Shown here piece by piece: positions 2,746 to 10,524 of a stretch of 10,524 nucleotides of DNA. A program made the position numbers and the translations under genes. Every line of letters begins with the position of its first letter. The stretch's first letter is position 1. Source of the DNA: a virus (Duplodnaviria > Heunggongvirae > Uroviricota > Caudoviricetes); the IMG/VR virus record IMGVR_UViG_2541047695_000006. The stretch is one strand, 5' to 3'. The notes under the pieces are model-generated. The model had not been told where the DNA came from, did not search any database, and saw only the letters and a program-made list of their open reading frames with translations.

Positions 2746-2842
2746 CTTGTTGGCGCAAGGTGCAGAAACGACGAAACCCGGCAGTGCGCTAACACTAACC
2801 GGGCTTCTAACCACCAACGATAGCGAAAGTATCGAGGTAGCT

Positions 2843-3049
2843 ATGAGAAATCATACCACACACCCGCAAGGGCGGGACTCGCACAACCTGAATAAATACA
2901 TCTGGCGTTTTATCGCCCTGAGCACGGCACAACCGCGCGTGATTACCATTGAGGCCACCAGCGAACAGGAAGCGCGTCAGCAATCTCCTGATGGCTGCGT
3001 GATGGTATTCGCTGCCCGTATTCGCCAGGGGGAAACCTATGCACAATAA
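2843..3049 (+). CDS. Small protein (68 aa), first gene of the rightward operon; tentatively Icd-like
   Basis: In-frame C-terminal part of the 1979..3049 ORF, preceded by GAGGT RBS. Sequence MRNHTTHPQGRDSHNLNKYIWRFIALSTAQPRVITIEATSEQEARQQ... The family call is from memory and tentative. Confidence 0.55.
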   Translation: MRNHTTHPQGRDSHNLNKYIWRFIALSTAQPRVITIEATSEQEARQQSPDGCVMVFAARIRQGETYAQ

Positions 3050-3275
3050 AACCACACCGGACGCAGCCGCCGAAGCCATCAAAACGCTGATGCACGCGCT
3101 GATTGATATTTCTGTTATCGCAGACAAGGCGCATAAGCGCGCCACCAGCGAAACAGAATATGCCGGGGCTTTCGTTCCTCACTCACTGGCTGTTATGCAA
3201 CTTAGTGCTGATATGGCGCTGAATGAAGCAGGCAAAATTCTTACCGCAGATATTCAAGGGGCGCACCATGCATGA
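3039..3275 (+). CDS. Hypothetical protein (78 aa)
   Basis: ORF in the track. GGGGGA RBS; start overlaps the upstream stop (translational coupling). Confidence 0.5.
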   Translation: MHNKTTPDAAAEAIKTLMHALIDISVIADKAHKRATSETEYAGAFVPHSLAVMQLSADMALNEAGKILTADIQGAHHA

Positions 3276-3495
3276 TGACCGTTATTTTAAATCAATGAGC
3301 CATGCAGAAAACGCACTGACTAACAGTGAATGTTTGAGGCAAATATTTCTTATCTGGCTTGATGGTTTAAGTGATGCGCCGGAAGATGAGCGTGAGTCTA
3401 ATCTTGCTGGTGCGTTTATTTCATTACTCGATACGGTAATCGTCGAATTAAATAAAGCGATCGAAATTCACGATAAAAAAATAAACGCGGAATAA
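3268..3495 (+). CDS. Hypothetical protein (75 aa; track ORF begins at 3223)
   Basis: In-frame ATG at 3268 has an AAGGGG RBS at 7-nt spacing and overlaps the upstream stop. Confidence 0.45.
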   Translation: MHDDRYFKSMSHAENALTNSECLRQIFLIWLDGLSDAPEDERESNLAGAFISLLDTVIVELNKAIEIHDKKINAE

Positions 3496-3500
3496 AAACC

Positions 3501-3788
3501 ATGAAACAGAAAATTTCTGGCTTTACTGCCAGCGGCCCCGCTCGGCCTGAAATCCGCCCCGGCGATATTTTCCGGGATAACTATGGCGGCACGGTAACGA
3601 TAAAAGGCGTGGCAGAACGGCGCATCACTTACCGCCGTGATGGCTACGAATATGACTGCGTGATGCCTGTTTATCAGTTCCGGCGTGATTTCACGCTGGT
3701 GGGCCATCGTAAAGCCGTAAATCAGAAACGTGCAGCAAGTCATATCCGCAAAATTCGTGAAATGCTGGTCGCAGGGGGTAAAAAATGA
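3501..3788 (+). CDS. Hypothetical protein (95 aa)
   Basis: ORF in the track. Its stop overlaps the rep start in an ATGA arrangement. Confidence 0.5.
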   Translation: MKQKISGFTASGPARPEIRPGDIFRDNYGGTVTIKGVAERRITYRRDGYEYDCVMPVYQFRRDFTLVGHRKAVNQKRAASHIRKIREMLVAGGKK

Positions 3789-5191
3789 AACTGGCACCGA
3801 ACGTAAAACTGTTACCGAAAGATAAACACACTGAGGCGGTTATTTTTGCGGGTGATAATGCTCACTCCTTTGCAGAACATTACATGATTGCACAGGCCAA
3901 AAAAGCAGGCGATCCCATCCCTCCGGTTTACCTGGGCCGTTATCAGTTAAGCGAACTGGACAACCTGCAGATTGTTGATGAGGGGCGATACAGGGTAACG
4001 GTGATACGCGCCGGAAATATTGACGAAGCGCAGCTGTTAACCATAGCGACAAAACTGGCGATCGCCGGAGTCCAGGAAGCGCGGCTGCTTTCTGAAAACT
4101 TCGAATTACTGGAGAAATGGACCGACCAGCTTCCACGGCTACGGGAGACATGGGAGAGAGGGGAAAGCCTGATCATGAACGGAGGAAAACAAAAAATCAC
4201 GCTACCGATTTCATGGGGTTCTGAGGGATTCGACGCGCAGCAAAGCTACGTAATTAAGGGGCTTATTCCGGCTGAATCATTATGCAGCACCTACGGGGCC
4301 AGCGGTTCTTATAAATCGTTCCTGGCTATTTCCTGGTCGTGCCATGTTGCCACAGGTATGGCATGGGGAGGCCGCAGGGTAAGTAAGGGCGCGGTTATCT
4401 ATATCGCTGGCGAAGGCAGTATGGGCGTAAAACGCCGCGTTAAGGCGTGGGAGATAACCCACGACAAGGTGGTTACGGATTTGTGCATCGTTAACGCGCC
4501 TGTCTTCCCTGCATCGCCTGACTATGTGGAGCAGGTTATCAGGACCGCCGGATTAGTGCAGGACAGAACGGGCGAAAGGGTGCGGATGATTGTCATTGAC
4601 ACGCTGGCCCGTTGCTTTGGTGGTCATGATGAAAATGACTCCCGCGACATGGGGGCGTTTATCCAGGGGTGTGACGCGATAAAGCAGGCCACGGGGGCCA
4701 CGGTTCTGGTTGTGCATCATTCCGGCAAGGATGAGACGAAAGGGGCGCGGGGTTCCAGTGCATTCCGTGCGGCGCTTGATGCTGAGTTCCGAATCAGTCG
4801 GGAACATTCAGAGGCTACGGCGCTGGTTGCAGCATGTACGAAGATGAAGGACGCGGAGGAGCCAAAAGAAAGCGCCTACGACCTTAAGAGCGTGGAGGTA
4901 TTTACGGATCCTGAGGGTGAAGAAATCGTGTCCATGGTGGTGATTGACGTTCCCCGCGCCCCTGCTGAACTGGAGCGCATAGAGGAGGCCGGGAACAAGA
5001 CGGAAAATCACACGGCTTTATGGGGTTGTATCCGGTCACGTATACAGCATGGTGATAAATGCACGATCCCGCTGCTACGTGATGACATGAAAAAGCTGGG
5101 ATATGACACAAAACACCTTAAACGATGGTTAGCCAAACTGGAAAAAGACGGCGTGATTTGCGTCGATGGGGATGATGTTCACCCACTGTAA
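3785..5191 (+). CDS. Replication initiator / helicase-like protein (RecA/DnaB-like ATPase, PICI pri-rep-like)
   Basis: 468-aa ORF with a P-loop-like GASGSYKS, a Walker-B-like MIVIDTLARCF and VLVVHHSGKDETKGARGSSAF. AGGGGGT RBS. Directly followed by an iteron array. Confidence 0.8.
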   Translation: MKLAPNVKLLPKDKHTEAVIFAGDNAHSFAEHYMIAQAKKAGDPIPPVYLGRYQLSELDNLQIVDEGRYRVTVIRAGNIDEAQLLTIATKLAIAGVQEARLLSENFELLEKWTDQLPRLRETWERGESLIMNGGKQKITLPISWGSEGFDAQQSYVIKGLIPAESLCSTYGASGSYKSFLAISWSCHVATGMAWGGRRVSKGAVIYIAGEGSMGVKRRVKAWEITHDKVVTDLCIVNAPVFPASPDYVEQVIRTAGLVQDRTGERVRMIVIDTLARCFGGHDENDSRDMGAFIQGCDAIKQATGATVLVVHHSGKDETKGARGSSAFRAALDAEFRISREHSEATALVAACTKMKDAEEPKESAYDLKSVEVFTDPEGEEIVSMVVIDVPRAPAELERIEEAGNKTENHTALWGCIRSRIQHGDKCTIPLLRDDMKKLGYDTKHLKRWLAKLEKDGVICVDGDDVHPL

Positions 5192-5393: not shown

Positions 5394-5645
5394 ATGACCA
5401 GAAAAACCAGAGATAAGACAGCACCAAAATATCGCGCATTAGACATGACAGAGCACGCCTTAAAGGTGGCAATCAGAACGATAGACCGCCACGCCGGAGA
5501 AGGATACGCGAAAGCACATCCCGAACTGATAAGCGCATTCATGACCACGACGGCGGCAAATTTTGCCACGCTGACAGAGCGGGAGATTGCCGAAGCGGAA
5601 CAGGTAACAACAATCAACGTTAAAACCGGAGAGGTGGAATCATGA
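5394..5645 (+). CDS. Hypothetical protein (83 aa; track ORF 5262..5645 probably over-extended into the iterons)
   Basis: In-frame ATG at 5394 with an AGGTGG RBS. Stop overlaps the ssb start (ATGA). Confidence 0.45.
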   Translation: MTRKTRDKTAPKYRALDMTEHALKVAIRTIDRHAGEGYAKAHPELISAFMTTTAANFATLTEREIAEAEQVTTINVKTGEVES

Positions 5646-6064
5646 CAGCACAGATAGCGGCTTACGGGCGGCTGGTGGCTGACCCGCAGTTAAAGACCAC
5701 TAGCAAAGGGACACAAATGGCGATGGCGAGTATGGCGGTTCCCCTGCCGTGCAGCCAGGCAGATGACGGAACGGCGACGATGTGGTTATCTGTCCTGGCG
5801 TTTGGCAGACAGGCCGACGCACTGGCAAAACACCACAAAGGCGAACTCCTGAGCGTGGCGGGTAACATGCAGGTGAGCCAGTGGACAGGCCAGAACGGCA
5901 AAACGCGGCAGGGCTGGCAGGTTATCGCAGATAGTGTAATCAGTGCCAGAACGGCGCGACCGGGCGGCAAAAAAGGTCAACAGGGCCAGGCCACTGACGC
6001 ATTGAACAGGGCAAAACAACAGTCAGGGAATGATGAACCGTACGGCGATAATATACCGTTTTAA
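5642..6064 (+). CDS. ssb: Single-stranded DNA-binding protein (SSB) homologue
   Basis: 140-aa ORF. OB-fold-like segments align by eye with E. coli SSB (LVADPQL; WLSVLAFGRQADALAKHHKGELLSVAGNMQVSQWTGQNGKTRQGWQV), and it has the acidic C-terminal tip ending DNIPF (compare DDDIPF). Confidence 0.75.
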   Translation: MTAQIAAYGRLVADPQLKTTSKGTQMAMASMAVPLPCSQADDGTATMWLSVLAFGRQADALAKHHKGELLSVAGNMQVSQWTGQNGKTRQGWQVIADSVISARTARPGGKKGQQGQATDALNRAKQQSGNDEPYGDNIPF

Positions 6065-6280: not shown

Positions 6281-7321
6281 ATGGTTGATTTATATTCGCC
6301 TACACAGCTTGTGCAGGTGGCTAATGCTGAAGATGTGCAAAAAAAACTAAATGCGTTGTTTACCAGTTTGTTTTTCACTCGCTCGGTAATGTTTGAATCG
6401 AGAGACATTATTCTTGATACGATCGACGATCCAAATATCCCGATCGCGGCGTTTTGCTCTCCTATGGTGGGCAGTAAAGTTTCACGAGATGAGGGATACG
6501 AATCAAAAACAATTCGCCCAGGCTATATGAAACCGAAAAGCAGTATTGATCCAAATAAGTTAGCTGTGCGCCCTGCTGGTGTATCACCTGAACAATACAA
6601 TGCTTTTGGAGCGCGTAATATTAAAGTTAAACAGGCGATTGTAAATCAGGCTAAAGCTATACGTGCACGTATTGAATGGCTTGCTGTTCAGGCAATCACA
6701 ACGGGGAAAAATATCATTGAGGGCGATGGTATTGAACGTTATGAACTGGACTGGAATATAAAACCACAAAATATTATCACGCAGTCTGGCGGTGCTGAGT
6801 GGTCAGGTAAGGATAAAGAAACTTTTGATCCAAATGATGATATTGAGAGCTACGCAGAATTTAGTGAGGGCGTCACTAATATCATCATTATGGGCGGTAA
6901 TGTATGGAAGAAATACCGTTCATTCAGAGCGATAAAAGAGGCTCTGGATACCCGTCGTGGTTCTAATTCCGAACTGGAAACGGCCCTTAAAGACCTTGGT
7001 GATTCGGTGAGTTTTAAAGGGTATATGGGCGATGTTGCGATTGTTGTTTACAGCGGACGTTATACCGACGAGGACGGAACTGAAAAACATTTCCTTGATC
7101 CTGATTTGATGGTGCTTGGCAATACGGCTCTTCAGGGGATTGTCGCCTATGGCGGTATTCAGGATCCGGAGCTAATCCGAATGGGGCTGACTAAAGCCGA
7201 ACTTGCACCGAAAAACTATATTGTGCCTGGTGATCCGGCTATTGAGTACATACAAACGCACTCTGCACCACAGCCAATACCGGCCCGCATCAATCGTTTT
7301 GTTACCGTTCGCATTGGCTAA
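6281..7321 (+). CDS. Major capsid protein, lambda gpE-like family
   Basis: Collinear similarity to lambda gpE, for example NIITQSGGAEWSGKDKETFDPNDDIESYA and DTRRGSNSELETALKDLGDSVSFKGYMGDVAIVVYSGRY. AGAGG RBS at 6-nt spacing. An alternative start at 6275 (MSM...) matches the lambda N-terminus. Confidence 0.9.
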   Translation: MVDLYSPTQLVQVANAEDVQKKLNALFTSLFFTRSVMFESRDIILDTIDDPNIPIAAFCSPMVGSKVSRDEGYESKTIRPGYMKPKSSIDPNKLAVRPAGVSPEQYNAFGARNIKVKQAIVNQAKAIRARIEWLAVQAITTGKNIIEGDGIERYELDWNIKPQNIITQSGGAEWSGKDKETFDPNDDIESYAEFSEGVTNIIIMGGNVWKKYRSFRAIKEALDTRRGSNSELETALKDLGDSVSFKGYMGDVAIVVYSGRYTDEDGTEKHFLDPDLMVLGNTALQGIVAYGGIQDPELIRMGLTKAELAPKNYIVPGDPAIEYIQTHSAPQPIPARINRFVTVRIG

Positions 7322-7330
7322 GGGGGAGCA

Positions 7331-7672
7331 ATGGCTACTCATTACACTGAACTCATGTCTGGTACTGAAGCACTGGTTACTACGCTGGGGATATTTTCAG
7401 CCAATAAAGGGGTAATACCTGCGTTTACGCCACTGATGCAGGAAGATGCAACTGGTGCGCTAGTGGTATGGGATGGAACGAGCGCAGGCAAAGCGGTTTA
7501 TGTTTCCGCTGTACAAATCGACACAGCGAAAAAAACACAGGCACAGGTTTATAAGACAGGTGTTTTAAATGTTGATGCTCTGAACTGGCCTGAGTCTGTA
7601 AGAGAACTGTCGGCAAAGGTTGCCGCGTTTGTTGGCTCAGGTATTTCTGTTCAGCCGCTGGCTCGTGTGTAA
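7331..7672 (+). CDS. Head decoration protein, lambda gpD-like
   Basis: 113-aa ORF with gpD-like motifs PAFTPLM, VVWDGT, YKTGxxxxDALNWPE and AFVGSGISV. GGGGGAG RBS. Confidence 0.8.
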   Translation: MATHYTELMSGTEALVTTLGIFSANKGVIPAFTPLMQEDATGALVVWDGTSAGKAVYVSAVQIDTAKKTQAQVYKTGVLNVDALNWPESVRELSAKVAAFVGSGISVQPLARV

Positions 7673-7683
7673 AGGGGGATACA

Positions 7684-8067
7684 ATGCAGAATCATTACAA
7701 TGACCTTAAGCCAATTGCCGAAATGATGTATCCGGATCCAGCAGTAGAGGAATTAAAGGCTATTGCTGACAAAATGCGTTTAAGTGAACGCCTTGTTGAT
7801 ATGAATCAGGTGATGGAACTTACTACCCTTAGCCGTCGCACATTGCTAAACCTTGAGGCTCGTGGAGAGTTCCCCGAACGCGTACAGGTTACGGAAGGGC
7901 GTAAGGCCTGGTATTTAAGTGAAGTGATCGACTGGATAAACAATATTCCTCGAGCTTCTGAATATTGCCGCGTACCTGTCCCCAAAAAGCCAGATGCGGC
8001 GCTATGCCTCAAGATTGAGCGTGTACGTCGCAATGCACGGGATGGTCGCTATAAGTTGATTGGTTGA
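7684..8067 (+). CDS. AlpA/MerR-like HTH DNA-binding protein (127 aa) immediately upstream of cos
   Basis: HTH segment LTTLSRRTLLNLEARGEFPERVQVTEGRKAWYLSEVIDWINN. AGGGGGA RBS. About 40 N-terminal residues have no recognisable signature. Confidence 0.65.
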   Translation: MQNHYNDLKPIAEMMYPDPAVEELKAIADKMRLSERLVDMNQVMELTTLSRRTLLNLEARGEFPERVQVTEGRKAWYLSEVIDWINNIPRASEYCRVPVPKKPDAALCLKIERVRRNARDGRYKLIG

Positions 8068-8120
8068 TGAAATTAGGGCCCGTTCTGGCTGGCGGGTCCT
8101 TTCCGGCGATCCGGCAGGCT

Positions 8121-8241
8121 ACGGGGCGGCGACCTTGCGGATTTTCGCTATTTATGAGCCTTTTCGGGTTGGTGGTGGTGGTTTTGTTTTTCGCTCTATC
8201 TCTATGAATAAAAAGGGAAAGATAACACCAACACACCAACC
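8121..8241 (+). other. Lambda-like cohesive end site: cosN (12-nt cohesive-end sequence at 8124-8135) plus cosB-like repeats
   Basis: GGGCGGCGACCT at 8124-8135 and the following about 35 nt closely match the lambda left-end sequence as recalled. Downstream are GGTTGGTGGTGGTGG (8167-8181), an A/T-rich tract, and a tandem ACACCAAC x2 (8225-8240) in inverted orientation, ending about 30 bp before the Nu1-like start. Confidence 0.7.
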
Positions 8242-8268
8242 TGAAACCTTAACTAAGTGGGGATATTG

Positions 8269-8811
8269 ATGAAATCGCACCTGATGAACAAAAAAACTAT
8301 GGCGCAAAGCTGCCGCGTAAGTGCGACAGCGTTCGACAAGTGGGGAGTAACTCCCGTTGAGCGTAAAGGCCGTGAGGCGTTTTATGATGTTGCTAGCGTG
8401 ATAGACAATAGGGTTAACAATGCAATTAACCAGCTTACAAACGACAAAGGCGAGATTGATGATGATGAACTTTTACGCGTAAGAATCAGATTAATGACGG
8501 CCCAGGCGGAAGCGCAGGAACTTAAAAACGAGCGCGAACGCGGCGAGGTGATTGATACAAAGTTTTGCATCTACGCGATTTCAAAACTAGCGAGTCAGAT
8601 TTCATCAATCATGGACAGCCTCCCGCTCACAATGCAAAGGCGCTTTCCCGATATAAGGCCGTATATGCTGGATGAACTAAAAAGGGAAATAGCCAAAGCA
8701 TGTAACGCATGTGCAAGACTTGACGAAAACCTGCCACAGATACTGGCTGATTACCTGATGGAAACTACCGGAAACGCGCCTGAGAAGTTGCTACAGAACA
8801 AAGGCGAGTAA
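8269..8811 (+). CDS. Terminase small subunit, lambda Nu1-like
   Basis: About 180 aa, collinear with lambda Nu1: N-terminal winged-HTH region (NKK...FYDVASVI) and TAQAEAQELKNERERGEVIDTKFCIYAISKLASQISSIMDSLPLTMQRRFPD. The start at 8269 has a GGGGA RBS; the track ORF begins at an upstream GTG (8257). Confidence 0.85.
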   Translation: MKSHLMNKKTMAQSCRVSATAFDKWGVTPVERKGREAFYDVASVIDNRVNNAINQLTNDKGEIDDDELLRVRIRLMTAQAEAQELKNERERGEVIDTKFCIYAISKLASQISSIMDSLPLTMQRRFPDIRPYMLDELKREIAKACNACARLDENLPQILADYLMETTGNAPEKLLQNKGE

Positions 8812-8884
8812 CCGCCGCCCCGTAACGGGCCATAATTCCAGGAAGGACCCGACGACACCAGGCTATCGGAACGATGAGGGCACA

Positions 8885-9166
8885 ATGACTGAAGCCGAAC
8901 TACTGGGATTAATCCGCCGCGTCGTCGGAATCAGCCAGCAGCATGACGAACAGGCCACACAGCCGGACAGCGTGACCGCTGAAAATTATGTGCGTGTTGT
9001 TGCTGAGGTGATGCGCCGTGATGGTATTGAGCTTAACGGCGTGGATATGCGCAACATACGAACAAGAGTCCTTGAGTTGCTGGCATACCGTCGCCGTTCT
9101 CAACAACGGAGGGAGAGCGCGAAAAATACTTACCAGTGGAAGAAGCCGGAACGGTTGCGGCGGTAG
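8885..9166 (+). CDS. Hypothetical protein (93 aa) downstream of terS; not a large-terminase homologue
   Basis: ORF with a GAGGG RBS at 6-nt spacing. No similarity to lambda gpA recognised. Confidence 0.45.
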   Translation: MTEAELLGLIRRVVGISQQHDEQATQPDSVTAENYVRVVAEVMRRDGIELNGVDMRNIRTRVLELLAYRRRSQQRRESAKNTYQWKKPERLRR

Positions 9167-9573
9167 ATTCCTGATATTCAGGAAAACCACGAATCTGTGG
9201 GGTTTACTGGCGCGGTTACGGCGGTGACACGCACCGAGGCAGAACAATTACCGTAGGTTAAAGCGACAGTATTCACACCAAAGGCAGAAATTAGCGGTTA
9301 ACGTAACTGACTGATATTTTCGGGAACAGCCAACGGCTGAGGCCGGAGCTATAAAAATAGCTTTGGGTACAGTCCTCAGTTTTGAGGGATGTTAACCAAC
9401 TGAATAATAAGCAAACCTCAAAATTGAGTTTTGTATCTGCCTGAGTTATTTCTGTGCTAACTTGCTGATATTCCCGATAACGTAAAATTGCGTTGGCTGG
9501 CAGAGTGCAAATTTGCACGATGGCCTAACCCATTGATTGTTTCGGAAACCTCAATTTGAGGAGGCCGGACAGC

Positions 9574-9608
9574 GTGACGGAGGGTGACAACCAGTGACAC
9601 GCCGTGAC
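9574..9608 (+). repeat. Four direct GTGAC repeats at exact 10-bp periodicity
   Basis: GTGAC at 9574, 9584, 9594 and 9604. The 9-mer GTGACACGC also occurs at 9224-9232 and 9594-9602. Confidence 0.55.
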
Positions 9609-10062
9609 AAAAAGACGGTTTAACCATCCATTAAAAATCGACGTGATTTTGTGCTTTCCGTATGAGGTGGCCAGCGTCATTTTTTAGTGAGAAATTCTGG
9701 TCAGGGGCGTTGGCTGAATGGTTATTTTATCGTGCCCATGCACAGGGAGGGGGCGGGTAAAATCTCTGGAGGTGATGCCTGTCAGGACCGCCGCCTGACC
9801 CTTCCTCACATCGCCGCAGGTTCGAAAACTTTTTTTGTGTCAGGTGCGCACGGAATTGATAGGTAAAACCTATATTAAAAAATCACGGAAGCCGCGCCAT
9901 TGCTGGATCAGTCAAAAATTCCACATCTCACGGCAGGCAAAAAAAGCGAATTTTGGGCCAGTTGAGGATAAAAAAGGGCTCACTAGTTTTGCACATCCTG
10001 GTATCGGGGTCGTCAGCCTCCCGCCAGTAACCAGGTAACTAATCACGCTGGTGGGCATGATG

Positions 10063-10090
10063 CCGATGCCGGGATCTCGGTATCGGTTTA
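10063..10090 (+). terminator. Candidate hairpin / weak terminator
   Basis: CCGATGCCG-ggatct-CGGTATCGG (one G-T pair) followed by the T-rich TTTATCTG. Confidence 0.25.
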
Positions 10091-10280
10091 TCTGTGATCA
10101 TCCACCAGCTTGATGACAGATAACAGGGAGTCATAACGATTAAAATTGTATATTTTTGCAGCAAACATTTTTAGCTACACGCTAAGCTATACGATTTTGA
10201 GTTTAAATTTTTTGTATTCAATTAAATCAAATGGTTATATGCACGTTTTGAATACTCTCGTGGACCAAAAATCCCAAGAA

Positions 10281-10368: not shown

Positions 10369-10524
10369 TCAGAACGTCCAGACTACACCCGCCTGAGTTG
10401 TGCTGCTTTCTTCACGGGAGAAACGGCTGTCGATACCAAGCGTTAGCCCCGTCAATGTTTGCTCAAAGCCAGCGCCTGCATCAGTGGTCACGTTGTTGCG
10501 GCTGTTAATTGCCGAACTCCACAT
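10369..10524 (-). CDS. Short minus-strand ORF at the window edge (51 codons from an ATG at 10522-10524; may be the C-terminus of a longer gene starting outside the window)
   Basis: Translated by hand: MWSSAINSRNNVTTDAGAGFEQTLTGLTLGIDSRFSREESSTTQAGVVWTF, stop at 10369-10371. Under 60 aa so absent from the track. Function unknown. Confidence 0.3.
   Translation of the reverse strand: MWSSAINSRNNVTTDAGAGFEQTLTGLTLGIDSRFSREESSTTQAGVVWTF

Follow-up and report, generated by a model that had tools for sequence, protein, structure and literature searches.

The whole stretch of DNA analyzed here (the window, 10,524 nt) is an almost complete classical Gram-negative PICI (GN-PICI) of the EcCICFT073 family, a phage satellite of Escherichia coli, and positions 6281-8811 are the standard late (packaging) zone of such islands. 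The joint explanation that we regard as probable combines this identity with packaging by way of a helper TerL, directed by a TerS/cosB pair of the island, and with a functional pair of capsid and decoration genes. The original prediction held that the zone encodes only a gpE-like capsid protein, a gpD-like decoration protein and a Nu1-like small terminase (TerS), in the order E-D-HTH-cos-Nu1, against cos-Nu1-A-W-B-C-Nu3-D-E in lambda; all three genes are found there, with matches far beyond chance, and both gene orders could be confirmed. It further held that such a partial module differs from those of described capsid-forming satellites. As a claim of novelty this did not stand, as the proper comparison is not with capsid-forming PICIs (cf-PICIs) but with the classical GN-PICIs, of which the set of capsid, decoration and small terminase only is the already published standard layout: the capsid and decoration genes c1499 and c1500 of EcCICFT073 were described by Fillol-Salom 2018 (PMC6092414), a capsid gene is present in 21 of the 29 reference GN-PICIs (PMC10111431), and capsid morphogenesis and terS are among the PICI core components of SatelliteFinder (PMC10085698). 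The island is thus one more member of a published norm, and its architecture has little weight as a discovery. What is added here concerns the selection on and divergence of the capsid and decoration genes, the C-terminal region of TerS, the PICI-specific cosB and the swap of TerS and RppA cassettes.

The island measures ~10.3-10.5 kb (10-20 kb being the range for PICIs), has att repeats at a specific chromosomal site and lies between yejM/tRNA-Pro and yejO, with core genes on either side. A copy of 99.2% identity that includes flanks of 12 kb (L001) shows the arrangement yejM/tRNA-Pro, island, yejO-narP-ccm, and all flanking genes are core genes. The published PICIs EcCIED1a.1, EcCI11128 and EcCIATCC25922 occupy the yejM site as well, with a closely similar att sequence. 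[quoted passage not shown] The PICI early or "Bro" zone (2843..3788, + strand; PHROG 6196, 5146, 2196 and 285, and the RefSeq annotation of L001) contains an Icd-like repressor-type gene (2843-3049), two small ORFs without assignment and a DUF4222 gene (3501-3788). The island has its own replication module, composed of a RepA-family replicative helicase (3785..5191, + strand; Pfam AAA_25, E=6.8e-43; PHROG 2850, E=5e-185) and a single-strand DNA-binding protein (SSB; 5642..6064, + strand; Pfam SSB, E=1.3e-15), and the gene set is completed by the capsid and decoration genes, a second AlpA-like gene, cos, TerS and a 93-aa ORF. Toward the right end, a 26-nt direct repeat (10168..10193, + strand), which has its partner upstream of int, resembles the published att of yejM-site PICIs, while a damaged copy of the tRNA-Pro 3' end (10253..10272, + strand), matching tRNA-Pro in other genomes, is the probable true attR core. 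The 3' end of yejO (10370..10524, - strand; L001 annotation converted to window coordinates) is chromosomal and lies outside the island.

The major capsid protein (MCP; 6281..7321, + strand, 346 aa) belongs to the lambda gpE family (Pfam Phage_cap_E, E=3.6e-41; PHROG 29, E=5.5e-91), is full length and has the ribosome-binding site AAAGAGG 6 nt upstream. Its fold is covered by the crystal structure 3BQW, the capsid of a CFT073 "prophage" and a 55%-identical homologue (E=1.5e-121), and by cryo-EM of lambda gpE (7VI9, E=5.9e-77). It has 55% identity to c1499 of EcCICFT073 and 42% to lambda gpE; for the MCP of the lambdoid icd prophage of CFT073, taken as the helper-type comparator, the value is 43%. 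Even the best of its matches in 50,697 phage records reaches only 41.8% identity. Starting 9 nt past the MCP stop codon, with the ribosome-binding site GGGGGAG, is the head decoration protein (D; 7331..7672, + strand, 113 aa) of the gpD/SHP family (Pfam HDPD, E=4.6e-15; phage 21 SHP and lambda gpD in the PDB, E=3e-16 to 1e-12). Both genes have strong ribosome-binding sites and are intact in all islands compared, with dN/dS values, at near-saturated dS, of 0.07-0.27 for MCP and 0.05-0.22 for D. They fall into two lineages that lie ~45% apart in MCP and in D alike, a sign of co-divergence; the window shares the lineage of the island L004 (84% and 97% identity, respectively) and is ~55% identical to the lineage of L005, L006 and CFT073. 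Given the intact ORFs, the strong ribosome-binding sites, the low dN/dS and the joint divergence, MCP and D are, judging from their sequences, a functional, co-evolving and satellite-specific pair. The only direct helper-satellite pair that was found comes from Kosakonia, where a relative with 85% identity in MCP interrupts a lambda-like E gene near codon 80, just as described for the helper-embedded PICIs (HE-PICIs; Mageeney 2023). The host prophage has a portal 90% identical to lambda B; its E has 87-91% identity to lambda E and 43-45% to the satellite MCP. Considering the last value, together with an identity of at most 42% to the MCPs of sequenced phages, the satellite MCP is an old, satellite-resident lineage and no newly acquired spare. 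The island of the window differs from the Kosakonia element in its chromosomal tRNA-Pro site, and the two integrases are unrelated (24% identity).

Downstream of D, the second AlpA-like HTH protein (7684..8067, + strand, 127 aa; Pfam Phage_AlpA, E=1.4e-8; PHROG 2790, E=1.8e-48; PDB 8C3T, E=1.6e-10) is followed by cos1 (8092..8170, + strand), which comprises a lambda-type cosQ-cosN together with the ~35 nt that adjoin it on the right. The cosN GGGCGGCGACCT at 8124-8135 is exactly that of lambda, and over the 79-nt stretch as a whole, ~90% of the letters agree with cosQ-cosN of lambdoid phages (E=2e-21). The adjoining putative PICI-specific cosB (8171..8268, + strand) includes a GGTGGTGGTGG run and, in the alignment of islands, is conserved among TerS-type PICIs and unlike the cosB of lambda. 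Of an inverted second cos site, a remnant (GGGGCGGCGG...) is left at 8811..8821 (- strand), where the inverted cosN is still complete in sibling islands. Another sequence similar to cosN, at 1569-1580, departs from it at two positions, which is within chance expectation, and was discarded.

The small terminase gene (8269..8811, + strand; alternative start, GTG at 8257) encodes a full-length Nu1-like protein of 180 aa (PHROG 57, E=3.6e-53), in which the Pfam Phage_Nu1 match (E=9.3e-24) spans profile positions 35-162 of 164. It aligns over its full length with N15 gp1 (48% identity) and with lambda Nu1 (37%), and is predicted to have the N-terminal wHTH, the central self-association region and the C-terminal TerL-binding region of a Nu1-type small terminase. 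Its most divergent part is the DNA-binding domain (35%, with 16 gap positions). The equivalent of Nu1 100-181, which is the TerL-interacting part of Nu1 (PMC6739421), aligns without gaps at 41-51% identity. TerS keeps this region, and from the identity alone we infer that it would bind gpA; the C-terminal 12-14 residues of PICI TerS have no Nu1 counterpart. The gene is under purifying selection as well (dN/dS 0.12-0.20). It occupies the position of rppA in EcCICFT073 and is nonetheless no Rpp, as the Rpp proteins have ~144-153 aa, with a wHTH and a C-terminal dimerisation helix and without the TerL-binding region. BLASTP gave no similarity between RppA and the TerS of the window, and a TerS profile including lambda Nu1 matched lambda-type TerS chains only in the PDB, leaving the RppC chain of 6HN7 unmatched at E<=10; the PDB search with TerS alone had no match.

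Based on these features, we propose that a lambdoid cos helper would induce the island through AlpA, and that the island would excise and then replicate as concatemers. The full-length Nu1-type TerS would bind the PICI-specific cosB beside the lambda-type cosQ/cosN, and its conserved C-terminal region would recruit the gpA-type TerL of the helper, so that the helper terminase would cut the island DNA and package it into helper-built heads, to be fitted with helper tails. Such a route would resemble the TerS strategy of the SaPIs and be another option besides the RppA strategy known from EcCICFT073. That the helper would be lambdoid fits the lambda-like prophage that hosts the Kosakonia relative. 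In the literature searched, no experiment on the island of the window or on any TerS-type E. coli PICI was found; induction, packaging and high-frequency transfer that depend on a helper phage have been shown for EcCICFT073 alone, and its transfer is lost with a phi80 delta-terS helper.

EcCICFT073, the model GN-PICI (Fillol-Salom 2018 ISME J, 2019 Mol Cell; coordinates taken from Table S1 of PMC6092414), is of the same size class as the island of the window and shares with it the order int-alpA-early zone-replication-SSB-MCP-D-X-cos-packaging specificity gene-93-aa ORF, as well as a lambda-type cosQ/cosN combined with a cosB unlike that of lambda. Its MCP, D and 93-aa ORF are, respectively, 55%, 54% and 78% identical to those of the window. 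In contrast, the packaging specificity gene is a 144-aa RppA in EcCICFT073, with no detectable similarity to the 180-aa full-length TerS, and its cosB is different too. Moreover, EcCICFT073 has a second, inverted cos site where the window has only a remnant, a primase as replication gene versus the RepA helicase, and an att site at roxA-phoQ versus tRNA-Pro/yejM, while islands of its type encode an unrelated 137-aa protein in the place of the AlpA-like HTH. Among the TerS-type islands, found at cspD/clpS, roxA/phoQ and yejM/yejO, TerS is 86-87% identical to that of the window and cos and cosB are conserved, although the window lacks the cos2 of its closest relatives.

As to the role of MCP and D, they would most probably assemble into, or along with, the head lattice on helper portal, scaffold and protease, and under laboratory conditions their contribution would be redundant with helper E and D. 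The original prediction had suggested capsid remodelling or interference with helper assembly; this is not supported by the experiments on the sibling EcCICFT073, where deletion of c1499 or c1500 left transfer and interference unchanged (Fillol-Salom 2018, PMC6092414) and where, of the genes cloned and expressed, only c1503 (rppA) reduced lambda plaques. The MCP/E identity seen in the Kosakonia pair, 43-45%, may be too low for co-assembly. MCP and D could also build a satellite-specific shell on the portal, scaffold and protease of the helper, which would place the island halfway from the classical PICIs to the cf-PICIs, at a "half capsid-forming" stage; if built, such a shell may be of reduced size or may help the island to escape from capsid-targeted interference. 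This would go along with lambda and phi80 helpers hiding the effect, their own E and D masking the loss, and we hold the shell, alone or together with such masking, to be rather doubtful.

It is unlikely that MCP and D are captured late genes of a helper, kept as vestigial cargo or as a spare copy that matters only inside the capsid gene of the helper itself. Mageeney et al. propose late-gene capture and a backup role of the capsid copy in HE-PICIs, the relative of the module in Kosakonia does sit within the E gene of its lambdoid host prophage, and the EcCICFT073 knock-outs have no phenotype. However, the strong purifying selection (dN/dS 0.05-0.27 at saturating dS), the intact ORFs across four genera and four att sites on the chromosome, the low identity of the satellite MCP to the interrupted E and to any sequenced phage MCP, and the E-D order, the reverse of the helper D-E, argue against this reading. 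Also unlikely is a redirection of capsid size, in which the island MCP, with D, would divert helper assembly to small heads that fit ~10 kb and exclude the helper genome. The MCP homologue Ccm has this effect in SaPIbov5, the same is suspected for PmCI172, which has small capsids and encodes an MCP homologue, and the cognate, co-diverging D suggests patches or shells made purely of island MCP; in addition, there is a single cos site here and the island has only ~21% of the lambda genome length. Against this, EcCICFT073, with the same module and 55% MCP identity, gave only phage-sized packaged DNA with lambda (PMC6092414), the lack of effect of its capsid or decoration deletion on interference and transfer extends to resident helper prophages, and reviews place the E. 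coli PICIs of its family in large capsids.

Searches against Pfam, PHROGs and PADLOC gave no portal, protease, scaffold, TerL or other structural family in the remaining ORFs of the window, where the profile searches of all ORFs found no structural families beyond MCP, D and TerS, and tblastn detected no homologue of lambda A, W, B, C, FI or FII in the chromosomal islands. Tail, lysis, portal and connector genes are absent by Pfam, PHROGs and tblastn, and the portal, prohead protease, head-tail adaptor/connector, TerL and HNH genes of a cf-PICI are found neither inside nor beside the island. Thus, the prediction that portal, scaffold/protease, TerL and tails must be borrowed agrees with the gene content of the window and the adjoining DNA, and so does the one that the element is a mobile satellite and not a decayed prophage, given the core genes in the 12 kb flanks of L001, the PICI backbone and the intact ORFs. 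That the region is a degraded lambdoid prophage, or a cf-PICI with its remaining head genes beyond the window, is extremely improbable and was rejected: the three virion-related proteins do all fall in lambda families and there is no difference between this cosN and the lambda one, but core genes bound the island on both sides with no portal, protease or TerL between the att sites, the lambda homologues listed above are missing, the int-alpA-replication backbone is of PICI type, the gene order is E-D-HTH-cos-TerS, the same 10-11 kb architecture is found again at several att sites, and the genes are intact and under purifying selection.

A capsid-morphogenesis gene and a packaging-specificity gene with cos, as expected of a PICI, are present as MCP, D, cos and TerS. 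All five components of the "Type A" PICI of SatelliteFinder (int, alpA, pri-rep, capsid morphogenesis and terS) occur in the window, and none of the forbidden ones (tail, holin, portal, connectors) was found in it. The cf-PICIs (EcCIEDL933 type; Alqurainy 2023) share the PICI int/alpA/rep backbone and have an MCP and TerS of their own, but they also encode portal, protease, head-tail adaptor/connector, HNH and TerL and build their own small capsids; in published trees, the capsid and TerS genes of PICIs and cf-PICIs are almost perfectly separated. Among the SaPIs, SaPI1 and SaPIbov1 (pac-type, TerS_S) resemble the window in using their own TerS to redirect the helper TerL, and SaPIbov5 (Ccm) in encoding an MCP homologue, although the protein families and the host phylum are different, packaging is of pac type there and of cos type here, the window has no homologues of the SaPI proteins Ppi or Cpm, and the size redirection of SaPIbov5 is not seen in the E. 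coli sibling EcCICFT073.

Among late-zone proteins, PADLOC matched no defense system, ARAGORN detected no tRNA in the window, and Rfam gave two matches only, both sub-threshold: one is symR-like (2770-2842), the other a spurious match of a miRNA model that overlaps cosB. The conserved 93-aa ORF (8885..9166, + strand; PHROG 1561, E=1.2e-56; 78-87% identity across islands) follows TerS or RppA in every island compared, and the 1.0 kb between it and attR (9167-10167) has no family match and is unannotated in relatives. Compared with its closest relatives, the window has lost 123 nt from the YlcI/YnfO region.

MCP and D occur in 395 of 5,426 complete E. coli genomes. The same architecture is found in EcCICFT073 and in islands at cspD/clpS and roxA/phoQ. 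Outside E. coli, where the genome-contig scan with a single protein gave three loci only, the MCP-D-AlpA-like block also occurs in Kluyvera, Superficieibacter and Kosakonia. About 7% of the complete E. coli genomes, and several other genera, thus keep a satellite-specific pair of MCP and D under purifying selection, while deletion of the pair has no known phenotype. Finally, between near-identical islands, cosB with TerS is exchanged for another cosB with RppA. TerS-type and Rpp-type islands, with the same backbone and a swapped cassette between the cos sites, offer a natural comparison, and this swap bears on the origin of Rpp, a question raised in the Rpp paper.

By its backbone and its late module, the island is a classical Gram-negative PICI (phage-inducible chromosomal island), and hence a further member of a well-described satellite family. 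On the plus strand, the window begins at the ATG of a tyrosine integrase gene (1-1242), followed by alpA (1768-1974), a stretch of short genes with an Icd-like and a DUF4222 gene among them, a RepA-family helicase (3785-5191), an SSB (5642-6064), a 346-aa lambda gpE-like major capsid protein (MCP; 6281-7321, Phage_cap_E), a 113-aa decoration protein of the gpD family (D; 7331-7672), a 127-aa AlpA-like HTH protein (7684-8067), a cos site carrying the exact lambda cosN 12-mer (8124-8135, within 8092-8170), a 180-aa Nu1-like small terminase (TerS; 8269-8811, Phage_Nu1) and a conserved 93-aa ORF (8885-9166); the chromosomal 3' end of yejO (10370-10524) lies on the minus strand. The gene content, order and coordinates of the original prediction for 6281-8811 were accurate. 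MCP aligned over its full length with crystal structure 3BQW (E=1.5e-121) and with the lambda gpE structure (E=5.9e-77), and D matched the structures of phage 21 SHP and lambda gpD. At 351 aa, 3BQW has the length of c1499, the capsid protein of the model PICI EcCICFT073, an agreement of length alone that does not imply that the two are identical. No other window ORF matched portal, protease, scaffold, TerL, tail or lysis families in Pfam, PHROGs or PADLOC.

In E. coli 504239, a copy with 99.2% identity (L001) was examined with 12 kb of flank per side, which contained yejL, yejM and tRNA-Pro on the left and yejO, narP and the ccm operon on the right. Portal, protease or TerL genes just outside the window would have refuted the original prediction; these are absent, both flanks being core genes. 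A 26-nt direct repeat brackets the island, with one copy ~90 nt ahead of int and the other at 10168-10193, and the 3' end of tRNA-Pro recurs in damaged form at about 10253-10272. Given these positions, the island is about 10.3-10.5 kb long and lies entirely within the window except for attL. The att sequence listed for the published yejM-site PICIs EcCIED1a.1, EcCI11128 and EcCIATCC25922 (Table S1, PMC6092414) closely resembles this repeat. The motif TAGCTAYACG is found in several copies and both orientations beside attL (L001 11900-11990, immediately before window position 1) and as one pair beside attR (10168-10193). These copies resemble arm-type sites for the integrase more than a crossover core; the likelier core is the 3' end of tRNA-Pro, of which attR holds the damaged copy.

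The original prediction correctly read the element as a parasite lacking most head genes, but judged the partial head module novel by comparison with capsid-forming PICIs (cf-PICIs); the right comparator is the classical PICIs, where such a module is the norm. EcCICFT073, located by the coordinates of Table S1 (PMC6092414), has the order int-alpA-early zone-primase-SSB-(perC)-MCP (351 aa)-D (111 aa)-137-aa ORF-cos-144-aa RppA-93-aa ORF, and a terS homologue is present in some Gram-negative PICIs (PMC6092414). A capsid gene occurs in 21/29 reference Gram-negative PICIs of Mageeney et al. 2023, who defined the "Late zone" (PMC10111431). In SatelliteFinder, capsid morphogenesis and terS are two of five PICI core components, all five being present in 375 PICIs; portal, head-tail connector/attachment, tail and holin profiles are the forbidden components in the separation of PICIs from cf-PICIs, and terL is among the cf-PICI-specific core genes (PMC10085698). 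Three more E. coli islands, at cspD/clpS (L004), roxA/phoQ (L005) and yejM/yejO (L006), have MCP-D-X-cos-TerS and the 93-aa ORF (X being the ORF between D and cos), no other structural gene, and core genes on each flank. MCP together with D, at a coverage of at least 80%, was found in 395 of 5426 complete E. coli genomes, and Kluyvera, Superficieibacter and Kosakonia have relatives with the same MCP-D-AlpA-like block (MCP 84-86% identical).

TerS is a full-length Nu1 homologue (48% identity to N15 gp1, 37% to lambda Nu1). Divergence is greatest in its DNA-binding N-terminus (35% identity, 16 gap positions), and the region equivalent to Nu1 100-181, the TerL-interacting portion as cited in the Rpp paper (PMC6739421), has no gaps and 41-51% identity. 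RppA, the packaging-redirection protein in the TerS position of EcCICFT073, has no similarity to the window TerS detectable by BLASTP, and a TerS profile did not match the RppC chain of 6HN7 (E<=10). Over the 79 nt at 8092-8170, identity to the cosQ-cosN regions of many lambdoid phages is about 90%; lambda-like sequence runs through cosQ and cosN and for ~35 nt beyond cosN on the right, and the next ~100 nt are unlike lambda cosB and conserved among TerS-type PICIs. A GGTGGTGGTGG run lies in this putative cosB ~40 nt right of cosN (8171-8190), and EcCICFT073 has its reverse complement, CACCACCACCAC, similarly spaced from cosN (L009 10610-10630); the match may have arisen by chance or mark a recognition element common to both but oppositely oriented. 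The 69-aa "hypothetical protein" (8060-8269) that RefSeq places across cosQ, cosN and cosB is probably not a gene, since the cos site accounts for its conservation.

Sibling islands have the published cos2, a complete cosN in inverted orientation, on the minus strand between TerS or RppA and the 93-aa ORF (L004 10755, L005 10359, L006 10349, L009 11298). All that the window has of cos2 is GGGGCGGCGG directly after the TerS stop codon (8811-8821), the gap to the 93-aa ORF being 73 nt versus about 256 nt in siblings, so that only one cos site remains in this island. L005 and EcCICFT073 (L009), both at roxA/phoQ, are 90-94% identical from MCP through D and X to ~40 nt beyond cosN, and this identity resumes at the second, inverted cos site. 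Because these near-identical flanks enclose cosB and TerS in L005 (9534-10325; window counterpart 8171-8811) but an unrelated cosB' and RppA in L009 (10601-11264), the packaging-specificity cassette, delimited by inverted cos sites, appears to have been swapped as a whole.

Beyond gene content, boundaries, homologies, conservation and selection, which were observed directly, a packaging route can be proposed from established EcCICFT073 and lambda terminase biology. A lambdoid cos helper would induce the island through AlpA, leading to excision and replication. The island TerS would then bind its own putative cosB and recruit a helper gpA-type TerL via its conserved C-terminal region, the terminase would nick the lambda-type cosN, and helper heads would take up island DNA, probably concatemeric as in EcCICFT073, before joining helper tails. 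We somewhat favour this route, a strategy like that of SaPIs, which package with their own TerS, in place of the Rpp solution of EcCICFT073. A relative in Kosakonia sp. S29 (L012, FONB01000025.1, 1-15400; MCP 85% identical) interrupts E of a lambda-like prophage at about codon 80; portal and protease precede it, and the remainder of E follows together with FI and FII. It is thus a helper-embedded PICI, in the configuration described by Mageeney et al. (PMC10111431). This location points to a lambdoid helper for the MCP-D module.

The sole remaining point is what MCP and D do, a question already recognised in the field for PICIs; our search of later literature found no resolving paper. Two MCP/D lineages exist, one comprising the window, L004 and the Kluyvera, Superficieibacter and Kosakonia relatives, the other CFT073, L005 and L006. 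They differ by ~45% in MCP and likewise in D, so the two proteins co-diverge, unlike TerS, which is 86-98% identical across the lineages. Since a cognate, co-diverging D makes sense only with lattice sites of the island MCP, the most likely reading, although a tentative one, is that both enter a head lattice built on helper portal, scaffold and protease. Deletion of the capsid or decoration gene of EcCICFT073 changed neither lambda interference nor transfer by resident prophages (Fillol-Salom et al., PMC6092414), null phenotypes that masking of the loss by helper E and D would explain. The competing readings are size redirection, a spare copy and a vestigial state; for this PICI family, none has positive support. 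Speaking against a vestigial state, MCP, D and TerS are intact in all islands compared, with dN/dS of 0.07-0.27, 0.05-0.22 and 0.12-0.20, respectively (dS often near saturation), and MCP and D have good ribosome-binding sites, with 9-11 nt spacing in MCP-D-X. By sequence, MCP belongs to a satellite-specific lineage: its best match among 50,697 phage records was lambda gpE (41.8%), it shares 43% identity with the MCP of the lambdoid icd prophage of CFT073, the site where Mageeney et al. (PMC10111431) placed the EcCICFT073 helper, and in L012 the satellite and helper proteins share 43-45% (MCP and interrupted E) and about 40% (D). Such low identities argue against a gene captured recently or kept simply as a spare. 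As for redirected capsid size, DNA packaged for EcCICFT073 with lambda was all phage-sized (PMC6092414), and the Dokland 2019 review states that normal-sized capsids package this island despite its capsid homologue. The function originally proposed, capsid remodelling or interference with helper assembly, is unsupported by the EcCICFT073 knock-outs; when genes downstream of the origin were cloned singly in the 2019 Rpp paper, only c1503 (rppA) reduced lambda plaques (PMC6739421).

The ~1.0 kb from the 93-aa ORF to attR (9167-10167), the accessory-gene position in other PICIs, has no convincing ORF and no PHROG match, is unannotated in relatives, and only parts of it are common to other E. coli genomes. 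At ~2643-2770, in the YlcI/YnfO gene region, 123 nt present in 99.2%-identical ETEC relatives are absent, the ORF measuring 101 aa in L001 and 59 aa in the window. A weak symR-like Rfam match (33 bits, below the gathering score; 2770-2842, minus strand) adjoins this deletion.
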